Source of the DNA: Escherichia coli
GTDB taxonomy: Bacteria > Pseudomonadota > Gammaproteobacteria > Enterobacterales > Enterobacteriaceae
Assembly: GCF_022846255.1 (NCBI RefSeq)
Contig: NZ_AP025682.1
Length of the DNA stretch: 64,000 nucleotides
Direction: 5' to 3' (one strand)
The notes beneath the pieces were generated by a model, which worked only from the letters and a program-made list of their open reading frames with translations, did not search any database and was not told where the DNA came from. This document shows positions 217 through 27,505 of the stretch, piece after piece (position 1 is the first letter of the stretch; every line of letters begins with the position of its first letter). The translations under genes and the position numbers were made by a program.

Positions 217-1524
<1,308 letters not shown>

Positions 1525-1783
1525 TCAAAAAATCACAGTGCTCGGTCAACTCTTACCCCGCAAGCACAGGTTGTTGGCTTCGCGGAACCGGGATGTTCTT
1601 ATAATCAATCACATTCCCTGTTACCAGAATCATCCCGAAAGCATTCAAATAGGACGCGGCATTATAGCGGCATCACTTTTATGAGTCGAGAACGGTTATT
1701 GCGCGCTGTCGCGTATTTTTTCACAATTCCCGGGCGATTTTCGTCTGAATGCTGGGCAAAAAGCGCAAAATCCAGACAAAACA

Positions 1784-1806
1784 AAACGGCCCGCAGGCCG
1801 TTTTTC
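1784..1806 (-). terminator. Putative terminator downstream of bolA
   Basis: Hairpin aaaacggcccgcaggccgttttt flanked by A-run and T-run, ~55 nt past the bolA stop. Confidence 0.5.
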
Positions 1807-1858
1807 ATAAAATCTTTAGCAACATACTGGAAAAGCGCCGACAGTTGCAAATGCGTTT

Positions 1859-2176
1859 TTACGCGATGCTTCCTGCTCCACGACAGGGAGGAGAGGCAAA
1901 GACGGTGTCCTGCAACCCTTCCCACTCCTTAATAGTGTAAGTATGCAGAGCCAGCGCATGAACGGTAGTAGAGAGTTCCTCCGCTAAAGTACTGTAAATC
2001 ATTCGATGACGATTCAGAAAACGTTCACCCGTAAAACGATCGCTGACCAGCACAACTTTAAAATGGCTTTCAGAGCCGGCTGGGACATTGTGACGATAGC
2101 TTTCATCCACTACTTCGAGGAATACGGGTTGGAACGCCGCCCTTAATTTTTCTTCTATCCGCTCACGTATCATCAT
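1859..2176 (-). CDS. bolA: BolA, stress-induced morphogene/transcriptional regulator
   Basis: ORF track gives 116 aa; true start taken at [11 protein letters not shown] (105 aa) as in E. coli BolA. Confidence 0.93.
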
Positions 2177-2480
2177 GAAATATCTCCTCCGACAACGCTG
2201 AGATGTCATCCATCCCTTTAAATACTAGCCGCTTTTACCGTTTCCATTGCAGCTTAACAACAAATATTTAGGTTTCGTCCTGGTTTTTCCGTCAAGCGTA
2301 TGAAGTTTACTGATTTAAAGATTGAAACACAGGCCTCGCATCAGCGTTTCTTTTACCAGGGGCGATTATTTCGTCAACATGATGAATTTACATGCCTTAC
2401 CCACTTCCCCTCGCCGTTGGCAATGTTATGATGGCGGGAATTTTTACCAAACACGCTTAAGAGTCTCTGAGAGCCCGAAC

Positions 2481-3059
2481 ATGTTCAAAAAAATCCTCTT
2501 CCCGTTAGTTGCTCTGTTTATGCTTGCAGGATGCGCAAAACCGCCAACAACTATCGAAGTTTCCCCGACGATTACACTGCCACAGCAGGATCCAAGCCTG
2601 ATGGGCGTCACCGTAAGCATTAATGGTGCCGATCAGCGTACCGATCAGGCGCTGGCAAAAGTCACCCGCGATAATCAAATCGTTACCCTGACCGCCTCCC
2701 GCGATCTGCGTTTCCTGCTGCAAGAAGTGCTGGAAAAACAGATGACCGCCCGTGGATACATGGTTGGTCCGAATGGCCCGGTTAATCTGCAAATCATCGT
2801 TAGCCAACTGTATGCTGACGTGTCCCAGGGCAACGTGCGCTACAACATCGCGACCAAAGCGGATATCGCCATCATCGCTACCGCGCAGAATGGCAACAAA
2901 ATGACCAAAAACTATCGTGCCAGCTACAACGTTGAAGGTGCATTCCAGGCCTCCAACAAAAATATCGCCGATGCGGTTAACAGTGTGCTGACTGATACCA
3001 TCGCTGATATGTCTCAGGACACCAGCATCCACGAATTCATCAAGCAGAACGCGCGTTAA
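2481..3059 (+). CDS. yajG: Lipoprotein YajG
   Basis: Start re-derived at MFKKILFPLVALFMLAGC (lipobox LAGC) inside the 245-aa track ORF; 192 aa. Confidence 0.9.
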   Translation: MFKKILFPLVALFMLAGCAKPPTTIEVSPTITLPQQDPSLMGVTVSINGADQRTDQALAKVTRDNQIVTLTASRDLRFLLQEVLEKQMTARGYMVGPNGPVNLQIIVSQLYADVSQGNVRYNIATKADIAIIATAQNGNKMTKNYRASYNVEGAFQASNKNIADAVNSVLTDTIADMSQDTSIHEFIKQNAR

Positions 3060-3102
3060 TTTCTGCCCTCTGGCCCGGTGCAAGCCGGGCCTGTAGACAC
3101 CC

Positions 3103-4578
3103 ATGTCCAGTCAATATTTACGTATTTTTCAACAGCCGCGTTCAGCCATATTGCTGATCCTGGGTTTTGCTTCCGGGCTACCGCTCGCCCTGACGTCCGG
3201 CACCTTACAGGCCTGGATGACGGTCGAGAATATCGATCTCAAAACCATTGGTTTCTTCTCTCTGGTAGGCCAGGCTTACGTTTTTAAATTCCTCTGGTCA
3301 CCACTGATGGACCGCTACACGCCCCCATTTTTCGGGCGGCGGCGCGGTTGGCTGCTCGCCACGCAAATTCTGTTATTAGTCGCCATTGCGGCGATGGGTT
3401 TTCTCGAACCAGGCACCCAGCTCCGCTGGATGGCGGCACTGGCGGTGGTGATCGCTTTTTGCTCTGCCTCCCAGGATATTGTCTTCGATGCGTGGAAAAC
3501 CGATGTGCTCCCGGCAGAAGAACGTGGTGCGGGCGCGGCAATCAGCGTGCTGGGTTACCGTTTAGGGATGCTGGTTTCCGGCGGCTTAGCCCTGTGGCTG
3601 GCAGATAAATGGCTGGGCTGGCAGGGCATGTACTGGTTGATGGCGGCGCTGTTGATCCCCTGTATTATCGCGACGTTGCTTGCACCAGAACCCACCGACA
3701 CCATTCCTGTGCCCAAAACGCTGGAACAAGCGGTTGTTGCACCTCTGCGAGATTTCTTTGGTCGCAATAATGCCTGGCTTATTTTGCTTCTTATCGTGCT
3801 GTATAAGCTGGGCGACGCATTCGCTATGAGCCTGACAACCACGTTTTTGATTCGCGGCGTCGGGTTTGATGCGGGTGAAGTAGGCGTGGTTAACAAAACG
3901 CTTGGCTTACTGGCGACCATTGTTGGCGCATTGTACGGTGGGATTTTGATGCAGCGCCTGTCGCTGTTCCGTGCACTGCTGATTTTCGGCATTTTACAAG
4001 GTGCATCTAACGCCGGTTACTGGCTGCTGTCGATTACTGATAAGCATCTCTACAGCATGGGTGCAGCCGTCTTTTTCGAAAACCTCTGTGGCGGGATGGG
4101 TACATCAGCCTTTGTCGCGCTGTTAATGACGCTGTGTAATAAGTCATTTTCCGCTACTCAATTTGCCCTGCTCTCAGCGCTTTCTGCTGTAGGGCGAGTT
4201 TATGTCGGCCCCGTGGCGGGTTGGTTTGTTGAAGCACATGGCTGGTCGACATTCTATCTATTCTCCGTCGCCGCTGCCGTACCAGGGCTTATTTTGCTGC
4301 TGGTTTGCCGCCAGACGCTTGAATATACACGAGTAAATGGCAACTTTATCTCCCGTACCGAATATCCTGCAGGTTATGCCTTTGCCATGTGGACACTGGC
4401 GGCGGGTATCAGCCTGTTGGCCGTGTGGTTACTGCTGTTGACAATGGACGCGCTGGATTTGACGCACTTCTCTTTCCTGCCTGCGCTGCTGGAAGTCGGG
4501 GTTTTAGTCGCCCTTTCTGGCGTTGTGCTTGGTGGTTTGCTGGATTATCTGGCGCTACGAAAAACACATCTGACGTAA
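3103..4578 (+). CDS. ampG: Muropeptide (anhydromuropeptide) permease AmpG, MFS
   Basis: 491-aa ORF MSSQYLRIFQQPRSAILLILGFASGLPLAL...; matches AmpG. Confidence 0.95.
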   Translation: MSSQYLRIFQQPRSAILLILGFASGLPLALTSGTLQAWMTVENIDLKTIGFFSLVGQAYVFKFLWSPLMDRYTPPFFGRRRGWLLATQILLLVAIAAMGFLEPGTQLRWMAALAVVIAFCSASQDIVFDAWKTDVLPAEERGAGAAISVLGYRLGMLVSGGLALWLADKWLGWQGMYWLMAALLIPCIIATLLAPEPTDTIPVPKTLEQAVVAPLRDFFGRNNAWLILLLIVLYKLGDAFAMSLTTTFLIRGVGFDAGEVGVVNKTLGLLATIVGALYGGILMQRLSLFRALLIFGILQGASNAGYWLLSITDKHLYSMGAAVFFENLCGGMGTSAFVALLMTLCNKSFSATQFALLSALSAVGRVYVGPVAGWFVEAHGWSTFYLFSVAAAVPGLILLLVCRQTLEYTRVNGNFISRTEYPAGYAFAMWTLAAGISLLAVWLLLLTMDALDLTHFSFLPALLEVGVLVALSGVVLGGLLDYLALRKTHLT

Positions 4579-23071: not shown

Positions 23072-23557
<486 letters not shown>

Positions 23558-23671
23558 TTACCCTGAACTGACGATACAACAAAGGCGCAACGCTTTTGAG
23601 ATAAAGGATCGATGCTTTCACTGCTTTTACCCTCTACCATTAGGCTAATTGCGACGAGAAAGGGACGACCT

Positions 23672-24211
23672 ATGAATACTAACGTTTTTCGACTGCTCCT
23701 GCTGGGAAGTCTGTTCAGCCTTAGCGCCTGTGTGCAGCAAAGTGAAGTGCGACAGATGAAACACAGCGTCAGCACGCTGAACCAGGAGATGACGCAGCTC
23801 AATAAAGAAACGGTCAAAATCACTCAGCAAAACAGGCTGAATGCAAAATCCAGCAGTGGGGTTTACCTTCTGCCTGGAGCAAAAACACCAGCAAGACTGG
23901 AAAGCCAGATCGGTACTTTACGTATGTCGCTGGTGAATATTACGCCTGATACAGATGGCACCACCCTGACGCTACGTATTCAGGGCGAATCCAATGACCC
24001 TTTACCCGCATTCAGCGGAACCGTTGAATATGGGCAAATTCAGGGAACAATAGACAACTTTCAGGAAATCAATGTGCAGAATCAATTGATTAACGCACCT
24101 GCCAGCGTCCTCGCCCCCAGCGATGTTGATATTCCGTTACAGTTAAAGGGTATTTCTGTGGATCAGTTAGGCTTTGTACGTATCCACGACATTCAACCTG
24201 TTATGCAGTAA
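23672..24211 (+). CDS. yajI: Lipoprotein YajI
   Basis: Start re-derived at MNTNVFRLLLLGSLFSLSAC (179 aa) with lipobox LSAC. Confidence 0.9.
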   Translation: MNTNVFRLLLLGSLFSLSACVQQSEVRQMKHSVSTLNQEMTQLNKETVKITQQNRLNAKSSSGVYLLPGAKTPARLESQIGTLRMSLVNITPDTDGTTLTLRIQGESNDPLPAFSGTVEYGQIQGTIDNFQEINVQNQLINAPASVLAPSDVDIPLQLKGISVDQLGFVRIHDIQPVMQ

Positions 24212-24509
24212 ACGTATTGCGGGGCGATATTGTGCGTCCCGCAACATCTTTCTCCGTCATTTTGTTACTCCGCTTACATCACCTGGATTGATAGTAAAAG
24301 TTTGCAACAAGGGTGAAAGTCAGTACAATCCCCGCCCGAATGTGTGTAAACGTGAACGCAATCGATTACGTAAATGATAGAACTGTGAAACGAAACATAT
24401 TTTTGTGAGCAATGATTTCTATAATAGGCTCCTCTGTATACGAAATATTTAGAAACGCAATTTGCGCCTTTTTCACTCCCGCAAGGGATTTTCAAACAGT
24501 GGCATACAT

Positions 24510-25394
24510 ATGAAAAAAACATTACTGGCAGCCGGTGCGGTACTGGCGCTCTCTTCGTCTTTTACTGTCAACGCAGCTGAAAACGACAAACCGCAGTATC
24601 TTTCCGACTGGTGGCACCAGAGCGTTAACGTTGTCGGAAGCTATCACACCCGTTTCGGACCGCAGCTCCGCAACGATACCTACCTTGAGTACGAAGCATT
24701 CGCTAAAAAAGACTGGTTCGACTTCTATGGTTATGCGGATGCGCCGGTATTCTTCGGCGGTAACTCCGATGCAAAAGGTATCTGGAACCACGGTTCTCCG
24801 CTGTTTATGGAAATCGAACCGCGTTTCTCCATTGACAAGCTGACCAATACTGACCTTAGCTTCGGTCCGTTCAAAGAGTGGTACTTCGCGAACAACTACA
24901 TTTACGACATGGGTCGTAATAAAGATGGTCGCCAGAGCACCTGGTACATGGGTCTGGGTACCGATATCGATACTGGCCTGCCGATGAGCCTGTCCATGAA
25001 CGTCTATGCGAAATACCAGTGGCAGAACTATGGCGCAGCGAATGAAAACGAGTGGGACGGTTACCGTTTCAAAATTAAATACTTTGTGCCGATTACCGAT
25101 CTGTGGGGCGGTCAGCTGAGCTACATCGGCTTCACCAACTTCGACTGGGGTTCCGATTTAGGGGATGACAGCGGTAACGCAATCAACGGTATTAAGACCC
25201 GTACCAATAACTCCATCGCTTCCAGCCATATTCTGGCTCTGAACTACGATCACTGGCACTACTCTGTCGTAGCTCGTTACTGGCACGACGGTGGTCAGTG
25301 GAACGACGATGCAGAACTGAACTTCGGCAACGGCAACTTCAACGTTCGCTCTACCGGCTGGGGTGGTTACCTGGTAGTAGGTTACAATTTCTAA
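24510..25394 (+). CDS. tsx: Nucleoside-specific outer-membrane channel Tsx
   Basis: Start re-derived at [22 protein letters not shown] (294 aa) within the 310-aa track ORF. Confidence 0.95.
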
Positions 25395-25402
25395 TTGTGA
25401 GA

Positions 25403-25431
25403 ATGCCGGATTTCATATCCGGCATTTTTTA
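25403..25431. terminator. Bidirectional rho-independent terminator between convergent tsx and yajD
   Basis: Hairpin aatgccggatttcatatccggcatt followed by ttttt. Confidence 0.7.
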
Positions 25432-25779
25432 TCACTTCTTCTTGTTCATCATCGCTTTCAAATCAGCGAATGGGTTGTACTTCGCTTCACCGACATCTTT
25501 CTGCGCATCTTCCCCTGCGATAACGGTCGTACCATACTGATCTGCTTCGGTATATTTTGAATGCTCGTGATCGTGGCAATAAAGACACAATAACTCCCAG
25601 TTACTGCCGTCTTCCGGGTTATTGGTATGGTCGTGATCAATGTGGTGAACGGTAAGTTCACGCAGGTTGGAATAAACAAACTCGCGAGAACAACGACCGC
25701 AGACCCACGGATAGATTTTTAATGCTTTTTCGCGATAGCCGCTTTCTAACCGCGCATAGTTTTTTGGGATTATAGCCAT
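25432..25779 (-). CDS. yajD: HNH endonuclease family protein YajD
   Basis: 115-aa ORF MAIIPKNYARLESGYREKALKIYPWVCGRCSREF...HHIDHDHTNN... Confidence 0.93.
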   Translation of the reverse strand: MAIIPKNYARLESGYREKALKIYPWVCGRCSREFVYSNLRELTVHHIDHDHTNNPEDGSNWELLCLYCHDHEHSKYTEADQYGTTVIAGEDAQKDVGEAKYNPFADLKAMMNKKK

Positions 25780-25866
25780 GAAAAGTTACCTGGATGAAAT
25801 GTAGGGTTACGCGCAGTTTCCCAAGATGCGGGGATTTTCGCAATCCTGAGTCAAGAAATTCTCACA

Positions 25867-26148
25867 TTACCAGTGACGGCGAGGTTCCATCAGCTGATGA
25901 AGAATGCGCGCAATGAGAATGTCATCGACTCTTATAACGTAATAAACAGTGTGAAACCTAAATGCGATCTTCTTTACCTCTGGAATCGCATCATAGTCTT
26001 GCCCTATCTCGGGCATTTGAGAGAGTGTATCCAGAAAAATGCCGAGAGAGTCGGTATAGCGATCCGCCTGCTCCTCACCAAACTTTCCCAGCGTGTAGTC
26101 ATAGATCCCTCTGAAATCTTCAACAGCTTTTCCGCTAAGCTTATACAC
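25867..26148 (-). CDS. ParE/RelE-superfamily type II toxin (putative)
   Basis: Track ORF 25867..26181 (104 aa); composition resembles ParE-family toxins (N-terminal YKLSGKAVEDF..., C-terminal ...YYVIRVDDILIARILHQLMEP). A GTG at 26148 overlapping the antitoxin stop is the more likely start; the 26181 GTG is the alternative. Confidence 0.7.
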   Translation of the reverse strand: MYKLSGKAVEDFRGIYDYTLGKFGEEQADRYTDSLGIFLDTLSQMPEIGQDYDAIPEVKKIAFRFHTVYYVIRVDDILIARILHQLMEPRRHW

Positions 26149-26383
26149 GATGTTTTTGCTTCCTTTCTGCTGCGATATCACGAAGCGTCATCGAACTTTC
26201 ACCGCTCTCAAGACCTTCAATAACTGCATTTCTGACAGCTTCATCCCTGGATTCTTGTTGTTCCAATAGACGAAGCGCTGAACGCATCACTTCACTGGCC
26301 GAGCCATAACGACCAGACTGGACCATCCGGGTAATAAAACTATCTAATTGTTCGCCAACGCTTACTGAGGTAATTTTGCGCAT
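26141..26383 (-). CDS. ParD-family (ribbon-helix-helix) type II antitoxin (putative)
   Basis: 80-aa ORF MRKITSVSVGEQLDSFITRMVQSGRYGSASEVMRSALRLLEQQESRDE...; the GRY.SASEV.R.ALRLL pattern is typical of ParD/COG3609 antitoxins; GGAG ~9 nt upstream of the ATG; sits directly upstream of and overlapping the toxin ORF. Confidence 0.75.
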   Translation of the reverse strand: MRKITSVSVGEQLDSFITRMVQSGRYGSASEVMRSALRLLEQQESRDEAVRNAVIEGLESGESSMTLRDIAAERKQKHRV

Positions 26384-26533
26384 AAGCGATCTCCATGTAT
26401 TAACTATTAATACAAAGTATATGTCAGAACTCTTTCTACAACCAAACCGTATTCAGTTGCATGTGAAACAGGCAAAAAAAACCGCAGCGCAAATACGCCA
26501 CGGTTTTTTTAACAGAACGGATTTAAAACACCC

Positions 26534-27505
26534 TTAAGGCAGAATTGACGGCTGATCCGCCCCTTCTTTTTCCACTTTCTGCTGCAACATGTGTTCGCGC
26601 TTCATACCCAGTTTCAGAGCCAGCGCCGATGCCACATAGATGGAAGATGCAGTACCGATGGAAACACCGATAAGCATGGTCAGCGAGAAGCCTTCCAGTA
26701 CCGGACCACCGAAGAGGTACAGCATCAGGATAACCATCAAGGTAGTACCGGATGTGATCAAGGTACGGTGCAGCGTCTGGGTCAAGGACACGTTAAAGAT
26801 TTCGTAAGGCGTACCGCGACGGATCTTGCGGAAGTTTTCACGAATACGGTCCGATACCACGATACTGTCGTTAAGCGAGTAACCGATAACTGACATCAAC
26901 GATGCCACAATGGTCAGGTCAATCTCGATATGGAATAACGACAAAATACCCAGCGTAATGATAACGTCGTGCGCCAGCGCAATAACAACCCCTGCCGCCA
27001 GTCGCCACTCAAAGCGGAAACCTACGTACACGAGGATAGACAGCAGCGCCGCCATCAACGCCATCGCACCGGTTTGCGCAAGGTCTGCCCCCACGCTCGG
27101 ACCGACGAACTCAATACGCTTCACTGCCGCATTCTGATTGGTGGATTCGTTAATCACCTTCAGAACCTGGCTGCCCAGCACCTGACCGCCGGTTTCGCCT
27201 TCAGCAGGCGGCATACGGACCATGATGTCGTGGCTGCTACCAAAGTTTTGCAGCATCGGCTCTTCAAAACCGGCTTTTTGCAATGCATCACGCATTACGT
27301 CAATTTCAGCCGGTTTTTCGAGCGTAATTTCAATAACCGTACCACCGGTAAAATCCAGCCCCCAGTTAAAGCCGCGCACGCCCATAATAACGATAGCGGC
27401 GATTAACAGCAGACCAGAGATGCCGAAAGCCCAGTAGTCCCAGCGCATAAAGTCATAGACTTTACGGCCGTGGTTTAGTTGTTCAACAGTATATTCCTGT
27501 GCCAC
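26534..27505 (-). CDS. secF: Protein translocase subunit SecF
   Basis: GTG start at 27505 giving (M)[24 protein letters not shown]... (323 aa); the track ORF extends 15 codons upstream to an ATG. Confidence 0.94.

Follow-up and report, generated by a model that had tools for sequence, protein, structure and literature searches.

The spacer between secF and yajD raises the question of what two small genes represent at a site that carries none in Escherichia coli K-12, and of how they came to be there. In the window, by which the whole 64,000-nucleotide stretch of E. coli DNA analysed here is meant, the interval 25780-26533 exactly fills the gap that the yajD start (25779) and the secF stop (26534) leave between them on the minus strand, and the listing of open reading frames (ORFs) and the sequence place two co-directional minus-strand ORFs inside it. 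An initial annotation had proposed that these ORFs form a ParD/ParE-like type II toxin-antitoxin module, inserted at a position that is free of genes in K-12. The comparison with K-12, which had been named beforehand as a possible refutation, agrees on this last point: the secF-yajD spacer of K-12 MG1655 measures 128 bp and contains no gene, and the parDE pair is absent from this strain. The two small genes are a genuine but ordinary chromosomal ParD/ParE pair, and it is highly probable that the locus is a functional chromosomal type II ParDE operon, a confidence that applies to its identity and is lower for the gyrase target discussed below. The features of the interval are the following:

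25780-25845, minus strand: yajD leader, 66 bp, common to K-12 and almost all E. coli
25846-26533, minus strand: haplotype-specific segment, 688 bp, 43.8% GC; the K-12 counterpart is 62 bp
25867-26148, minus strand: parE, 93 aa, GTG start, RefSeq WP_000277485.1; assigned from Pfam, PDB sequence matches, AlphaFold2 and Foldseek
26141-26383, minus strand: parD, 80 aa, RefSeq WP_001226938.1; assigned from Pfam, TIGR02606 and VcParD2 matches
26391-26394, minus strand: Shine-Dalgarno sequence GGAG, 7 nt upstream of the parD ATG, read from the sequence
26396-26414, no strand: candidate ParD operator, a 19-bp perfect palindrome TGTATTAA-TAG-TTAATACA (inverted repeat I6)
26416-26445, minus strand: candidate parDE promoter, TTGGTT (26440-26445), 18-nt spacer, TATACT (26416-26421)
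26475-26510, minus strand: secDF intrinsic terminator with A-run, G+C-rich hairpin and T-run (inverted repeat I1)

Identity of the antitoxin and the toxin

The product of the upstream gene, which includes the motif GRYGSASEVMRSALRLLEQQE quoted in the initial annotation as evidence of a ribbon-helix-helix antitoxin, matches the Pfam family ParD_antitoxin (PF03693, E=1.9e-22) and the NCBIfam model TIGR02606, the latter at 95.7 bits, the curated cut-off being 46.2. Among solved structures, Vibrio cholerae ParD2 (VcParD2; 7b22/7r5a, E=2.9e-19, residues 1-69 aligned) is nearest to it, followed by ParD1 of Caulobacter and ParD1 of Mycobacterium tuberculosis (E=2e-13 and 3e-10). These matches confirm the proposed ParD antitoxin, with an N-terminal ribbon-helix-helix domain and a C-terminal toxin-binding tail. 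In a model of the VcParD2 operator complex, the ribbon residues K3, T5 and S6 touch the DNA (PMC10776004), and all three are kept in the aligned ParD of the window, which is presumed by analogy to act as an autorepressor.

The stop codon of parD and the GTG start of parE at 26148 overlap by 8 nt (GTGTATAA). The pair thus shows the ParDE layout of a bicistronic unit on one strand with the antitoxin gene first, as initially described for the order of the genes and their overlapping stop and start, and the 8-nt overlap is a classic translational-coupling arrangement. The toxin ORF can also be read as a 104-aa protein (25867-26181, minus strand) from a first GTG at 26181. This longer reading was dropped in favor of the 93-aa form, because the Pfam ParE model begins only at residue 13 of the long form, because the homologues are 94 aa in length and because the RefSeq annotation comprises 282 nt.

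ParE matches the Pfam family ParE_toxin (PF05016) with E=7.9e-14, the match covering positions 1-88 of the 89 in the model, while NCBIfam has no model for the toxin. With the sequence alone, phmmer retrieves four solved ParE toxins (PrpT, M. tuberculosis ParE1, Caulobacter ParE1 and V. cholerae ParE2, VcParE2), and for both proteins the best matches among solved structures are the ParD-ParE complexes 7r5a, 3kxe, 8c24 and 7ycs. Based on 42 homologues, an AlphaFold2 model (pLDDT 90.5) predicts strand 2-4, helices 6-23 and 25-44, and strands 58-63, 66-72 and 77-84, so that the predicted structure would consist of a short strand, two long helices and three strands, as in the ParE fold. When this model was compared with the PDB by Foldseek, the top 23 chains were all of the ParE class (TM 0.66-0.88; for the parE product, the range to ParE toxins is given as TM 0.84-0.88), and RelE, YoeB, HigB and YafQ ranked below them (TM 0.46-0.69). 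The proposal of a ParE/RelE-fold toxin is therefore upheld by Pfam, PDB sequence matches, AlphaFold2 and Foldseek. Within it, the ParE part stands and the RelE RNase part does not, as RelE-type structures reach a TM of at most 0.69 and the antitoxin is a ParD, not a RelB. Because of the sequence matches and the Foldseek ranking over the RNases, the toxin belongs to the ParE class and not to the RelE class.

The pair was already known in the sense that it is annotated in RefSeq, where WP_001226938.1 is named a ParD family antitoxin and WP_000277485.1 and WP_000277484.1 are named RelE/ParE family toxins. A 2020 review lists TAfinder predictions for strain EDL933 and marks the unvalidated ones (PMC7167474); no experimental study of the secF-yajD parDE locus was found in the searchable literature. 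Neither protein matched a PADLOC defence family at E<=0.01, and no phage relative of the pair was detected in 50,697 phage records.

Alternative forms of the secF-yajD interval and their distribution

Alignment with K-12 reveals that the 688 bp of the haplotype-specific segment replace 62 bp, with one break point directly behind the secF stop codon and the other 66 bp upstream of yajD, and that the secF terminator differs between the two versions. The segment comprises the secF terminator, the parDE promoter and operator, parD and parE, and its GC content lies below the 51.1% of the window. Target-site duplications and terminal direct or inverted repeats were looked for at the segment ends and none was found; therefore, no mechanism of transposition or integration can be proposed. 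In the species representatives with adjacent secF and yajD (E. coli, Escherichia sp. MOD1-EC7003, two Salmonella enterica subspecies, Kluyvera, Phytobacter and Kosakonia), the spacer measures about 115-240 bp and lacks parDE, and the parDE genes are therefore to be regarded as a gain. The secF terminator of Salmonella is a hairpin of the K-12 type, while Kosakonia, Phytobacter, Kluyvera and Escherichia sp. MOD1-EC7003 exhibit the window-type hairpin with compensatory changes in the stem. As the terminator types differ and each of them is found in other genera, the K-12 spacer is not the empty site of this insertion. The suggested insertion between yajD and secF is thus retained with respect to the extra genes relative to K-12, but not as a simple insertion into a K-12-like spacer; the two forms of the interval behave as alternative haplotypes that can be exchanged by recombination in the flanking core genes. 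At the sensitivity of megablast, a window-type terminator without parDE was present in no E. coli genome. Both terminator types occur outside E. coli and give conflicting indications as to which haplotype is ancestral.

The site, or the adjacency of secF and yajD, is variable across genera. In Pseudocitrobacter, the spacer extends over about 1.56 kb and contains a 466-aa ORF (1061-2461 of one locus, in which the spacer spans 948-2500), and in many other Enterobacterales secF is not found within 2.5 kb of yajD. YajD was also encountered on short contigs assigned to Firmicutes, namely Alkalicoccobacillus porphyridii (720 bp, 100%) and a metagenome-assembled genome of Candidatus Dorea intestinavium (2.5 kb, 92%), which almost certainly represent enterobacterial contamination of public assemblies.

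The full interval was identified in 424 of 5,426 complete E. coli genomes (about 8%), in every case on the chromosome and at this secF-yajD site, in keeping with the expectation that such pairs are strain-variable. The 66 bp adjoining yajD are found in 5,403 genomes and the remainder of the interval in only 424-426. Among the carriers are the O157:H7/O55:H7 lineage (identity to the window 98.4-98.5%), in whose sampled genomes parDE is present throughout, the O7:K1 strain CE10 (97.1%) and the window's own allele group (92 genomes at an identity of at least 99%). Because O157:H7 is heavily over-sampled, the value of 8% overstates the prevalence across lineages. A scan for ParE in one genome per GTDB species yielded no close relative, and the E. 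coli species representative is without it; accordingly, the exact allele is essentially limited to a subset of E. coli.

Relative to O157:H7 and CE10, parD exhibits five synonymous and no non-synonymous codon differences, and parE four synonymous and two non-synonymous ones (E25D and I37T). The divergence between lineages amounts to 1.5-2.9% for the segment and 1.1-2.6% for the flanking secDF and yajD-tsx DNA. Though the numbers are small, this pattern would fit a long residence at the site under purifying selection. None of the 59 full-length matches that were listed for the 424 carriers has a disrupted reading frame. In strain E105 (NZ_CP071375.1), an IS3-family element is located exactly at the parD/parE junction (locus positions 1398-3228), where it removes the last four ParD residues (KHRV) and leaves parE intact. 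This element cuts parE off from both the promoter of parD and the translational coupling and represents a natural uncoupling in a viable strain; therefore, the expression or the potency of the toxin may be modest. Four shortened toxins of 54-78 aa, 97-100% identical over the remaining part, are rare finds among public sequences, and one lies on an NCBI contig of 5.47 Mb; in a small number of strains, decay of the toxin has therefore taken place.

Several observations concern the surroundings of the locus. In CE10, the neighboring yajI (DUF3251) is truncated beside a degraded IS200/IS605 transposase pseudogene (locus positions 1-866). Over positions 14000-38000 of the window (24 kb), the identity does not exceed 98.5% in any of the 5,426 complete E. 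coli genomes, while the 688-bp parDE segment is 100% identical to that of RM14723 and Z1323HEC0355; RM14723 matches the window at 97.8% on the yajD/tsx side and at 99.6% on the secDF side. Either the lineage of the window is poorly sampled or the region would be a recombination mosaic. The yajI-tsx-yajD side (23346-25845) is also the more diverged one between strains, with 97.4-98.3% identity versus 98.4-99.6% on the secDF side, which we take to fit diversifying pressure on Tsx as a phage and colicin receptor.

Regulatory elements and proposed mode of action

The RNA of the secF terminator folds with -25.1 kcal/mol (z=-5.1). Downstream of it, the candidate parDE promoter is weak, with 8 of 12 consensus matches. 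A consensus scan of positions 25700-26650 for promoters and terminators reported nothing, not even the evident secF terminator, and the promoter assignment consequently rests on the alignment with plasmid homologues: those of Yersinia, Citrobacter and Pectobacterium carry TTGACA-17-TATCAT at the aligned place, just before the palindrome, which suggests the probable promoter of the chromosomal pair.

The palindrome of the window is situated one base upstream of the GGAG ribosome-binding site. The window, O157:H7, CE10 and E105 agree in its core GTATTAA-TAG-TTAATAC, and across these four E. coli lineages only the outermost base of the right arm (26396) varies. The block of about 26446-26397 is unchanged in all four except for an A/C difference in the promoter spacer at 26429, while CE10 is strongly diverged between the terminator and this block. 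In the Yersinia, Citrobacter and Pectobacterium plasmids, the corresponding element reads TGTGTTAA-TAG-TTAACACA, in which an A-to-G change is mirrored by a T-to-C change so that the symmetry is kept; the Salmonella plasmid homologue, one of the four plasmid loci compared, lacks the palindrome. As symmetry is kept in three of four plasmid homologues and the core is invariant in E. coli, the palindrome is likely to be the ParD operator. Residue 3 of ParD (codon region 26375-26383) is Lys in the window, where the operator arm reads GTATTAA, and Arg in the Yersinia, Citrobacter and Pectobacterium plasmids (1266-1274 of the loci), where it reads GTGTTAA. Speculatively, this may reflect a protein-DNA co-variation at a base-contacting ribbon residue.

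No terminator-like fold was found between parE and yajD (fold z=0.14); read-through into yajD is therefore possible. Rfam reported no RNA family at the gathering threshold in the whole 64-kb window (1-64000).

In the proposed model, parD and parE would be co-transcribed from the weak promoter that closely follows the secF terminator, and their translation would be coupled by the 8-nt overlap of stop and start. ParD would dimerise via its N-terminal ribbon-helix-helix domain and bind the 19-bp palindrome, which lies between the candidate -10 element and the ribosome-binding site and over the likely transcription start, thereby repressing the operon, while its C-terminal tail would wrap around ParE and neutralise it. 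Once the labile ParD is degraded or no longer replenished, ParE would be freed and would poison DNA gyrase, resulting in replication arrest. We infer the toxicity, neutralisation and autorepression of this system from its characterised relatives.

For VcParE2, the surface that interacts with gyrase was assigned to the two-helix hairpin, and toxicity was linked to Trp25, together with Phe20, Tyr33, His69 and His88; a W25F exchange reduces toxicity, and the gyrase subunit that is contacted reportedly varies between ParE homologues (2025 preprint, bioRxiv 10.1101/2025.07.24.666505). In a HMMER alignment, F20, W25, Y33, H69 and H88 of VcParE2 correspond to Y18, F23, Y31, H66 and H84 of the ParE studied here, and these five positions are invariant or nearly so in an alignment of 42 subfamily members. 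The Phe at the position of Trp25 is not evidence of decay, because Phe is the norm of the subfamily, plasmid copies included. By analogy, gyrase would also be the target of this ParE.

Relatives, alternative explanations and significance

The next ParE proteins outside E. coli are 57-66% identical and belong to Salmonella, Erwinia, Xenorhabdus, Yersinia and others, and the tblastn hits were plasmid-borne; in PLSDB, 362 plasmid records contain a relative. The closest non-E. coli relatives are enterobacterial plasmid ParDE systems (Salmonella pLG26p2, Yersinia ruckeri, Citrobacter and Pectobacterium), whose ParE is 57-63% and whose ParD is 75-78% identical to the chromosomal proteins. In each of the four plasmid loci opened, parD measures 243 nt and overlaps parE by 8 nt, and a homologous palindromic operator occurs in three of them. 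They differ from the chromosomal pair in being plasmid-borne and, in three of four cases, in exhibiting a strong consensus promoter instead of a weaker one. In the C. freundii plasmid pF1917-3 and in the P. atrosepticum plasmid, parDE is located immediately downstream of repA, which it directly adjoins, and in the Y. ruckeri plasmid a replication initiator gene is found no more than about 1.2 kb away. On pF1917-3 (locus positions 1266-3074), parDE is followed by a gene for a 'reverse transcriptase family protein' and an HTH regulator, possibly a retron-like defence pair. The most economical origin of the chromosomal parDE would be that of a plasmid-derived module captured by the chromosome.

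Among characterised systems, V. cholerae ParD2-ParE2 (7R5A, encoded by parDE2 of the superintegron) provides the closest solved antitoxin and a toxin of similar fold (TM 0.84). In both systems, the antitoxin gene leads a bicistronic operon and the operator consists of short repeats containing GTA; the toxicity-linked residues are conserved or conservatively replaced here. The toxins are, however, only about 28% identical, with Trp25 in VcParE2 and Phe here; the operator of the window is a single 8-3-8 palindrome with one ATAC half-site, whereas that of VcparDE2 comprises three GGTA boxes about 10 bp apart; and VcparDE2 resides in an integron, whereas the E. coli locus lies between housekeeping genes. 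The best match of the toxin in sequence and fold is PrpT of the PrpA-PrpT system on a Pseudoalteromonas rubra plasmid (7YCS; E=8e-8, TM 0.88), which likewise has Phe at the Trp25-equivalent position. It differs by its identity of 28%; moreover, the E. coli pair resides on the chromosome, away from any replicon, so that a function in controlling the copy number of a plasmid cannot apply to it. ParD1-ParE1 of Caulobacter crescentus (3KXE) and of M. tuberculosis (8C24), with toxin E-values of about 1e-7, share the fold, the operon order and a C-terminal LHQxM motif, but the toxins are 31-32% identical and carry Trp in the helix-helix loop. PaaR2-PaaA2-ParE2 from prophages of E. coli O157:H7 (5CW7) is found in the same pathotype and also comprises a ParE-fold toxin (TM 0.78), yet it is 18-20% identical, prophage-borne and composed of three components with another antitoxin and a separate regulator (PMC7167474). 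It is a different system from the secF-yajD parDE.

Three other readings of the locus can be weighed against a functional ParDE operon. That the ORFs are chance open frames or functionless remnants could be argued from their small size and from the rare shortened variants, but this was virtually excluded by Pfam E-values of 1e-14 to 1e-22, by the intact frames of all 59 full-length matches listed, by the bias toward synonymous changes and by the conservation of the candidate operator. A toxin acting as a RelE-like ribosome-dependent mRNA endonuclease instead of a gyrase poison is very improbable. The RefSeq name reads just 'RelE/ParE family', RelE-type structures appear among the weaker fold matches, and PF05016 presumably also takes in RelE-type toxins; against this, all solved relatives detectable by sequence are ParE toxins paired with ParD, the 23 ParE-class chains outrank any RNase, the partner belongs to TIGR02606 and not to RelB, and the long N-terminal hairpin of two predicted helices is a hallmark of ParE.

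An attenuated or domesticated module, in which a weakly toxic ParE would be kept for anti-addiction, i.e., the neutralisation of related plasmid-borne ParE toxins by ParD, or for quinolone tolerance through mild gyrase inhibition, is partly compatible with the operon reading and is considered unlikely. It draws on the Phe that replaces the Trp most important for VcParE2 toxicity, on the viability of E105 with its IS3 element at the gene junction, on the closeness of ParD to the plasmid ParDs, which extends to 25-26 of the 35 C-terminal toxin-binding positions, and on the frequency of plasmid homologues, some of them directly beside repA. Published links of ParE-type toxins to quinolone tolerance and the evolution of resistance point in the same direction: a Pseudomonas aeruginosa ParE is reported to protect against anti-gyrase antibiotics (PMC6368863), and the acquisition of RelE/ParE-type toxins by E. 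coli was linked to later quinolone-resistance mutations (PMC10575684). However, F23 is nearly invariant in the whole subfamily including the plasmid copies, both genes are intact and apparently under purifying selection in divergent lineages, and the gene families of the latter study are not tied to the secF-yajD parDE locus.

Under the preferred reading of a functional ParDE operon, the pair would most likely act as a selfish module that stabilises its locus, and plasmid addiction or quinolone tolerance may be affected as a side-effect. A more far-reaching proposal, which is rather doubtful, holds that parDE is maintained in O157:H7/O55:H7, in CE10-like strains and in the group of the window as an immunity to plasmid ParDE addiction modules, and perhaps also as a mild gyrase modulator shaping quinolone tolerance. 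If this were true, the two secF-yajD haplotypes would represent an ancient polymorphism that selection has preserved, rather than the outcome of a recent insertion. As a textbook module, parDE matters little beyond bookkeeping, and the presence of a chromosomal toxin-antitoxin pair of putative gyrase-poison type across the sampled O157:H7/O55:H7 genomes is one of three modest points of interest. Its closeness to plasmid ParDs makes the chromosomal pair a convenient case for anti-addiction, and the locus illustrates that an apparent toxin-antitoxin "insertion" can be a replacement haplotype with its own terminator, which may be swapped via the flanking core genes.
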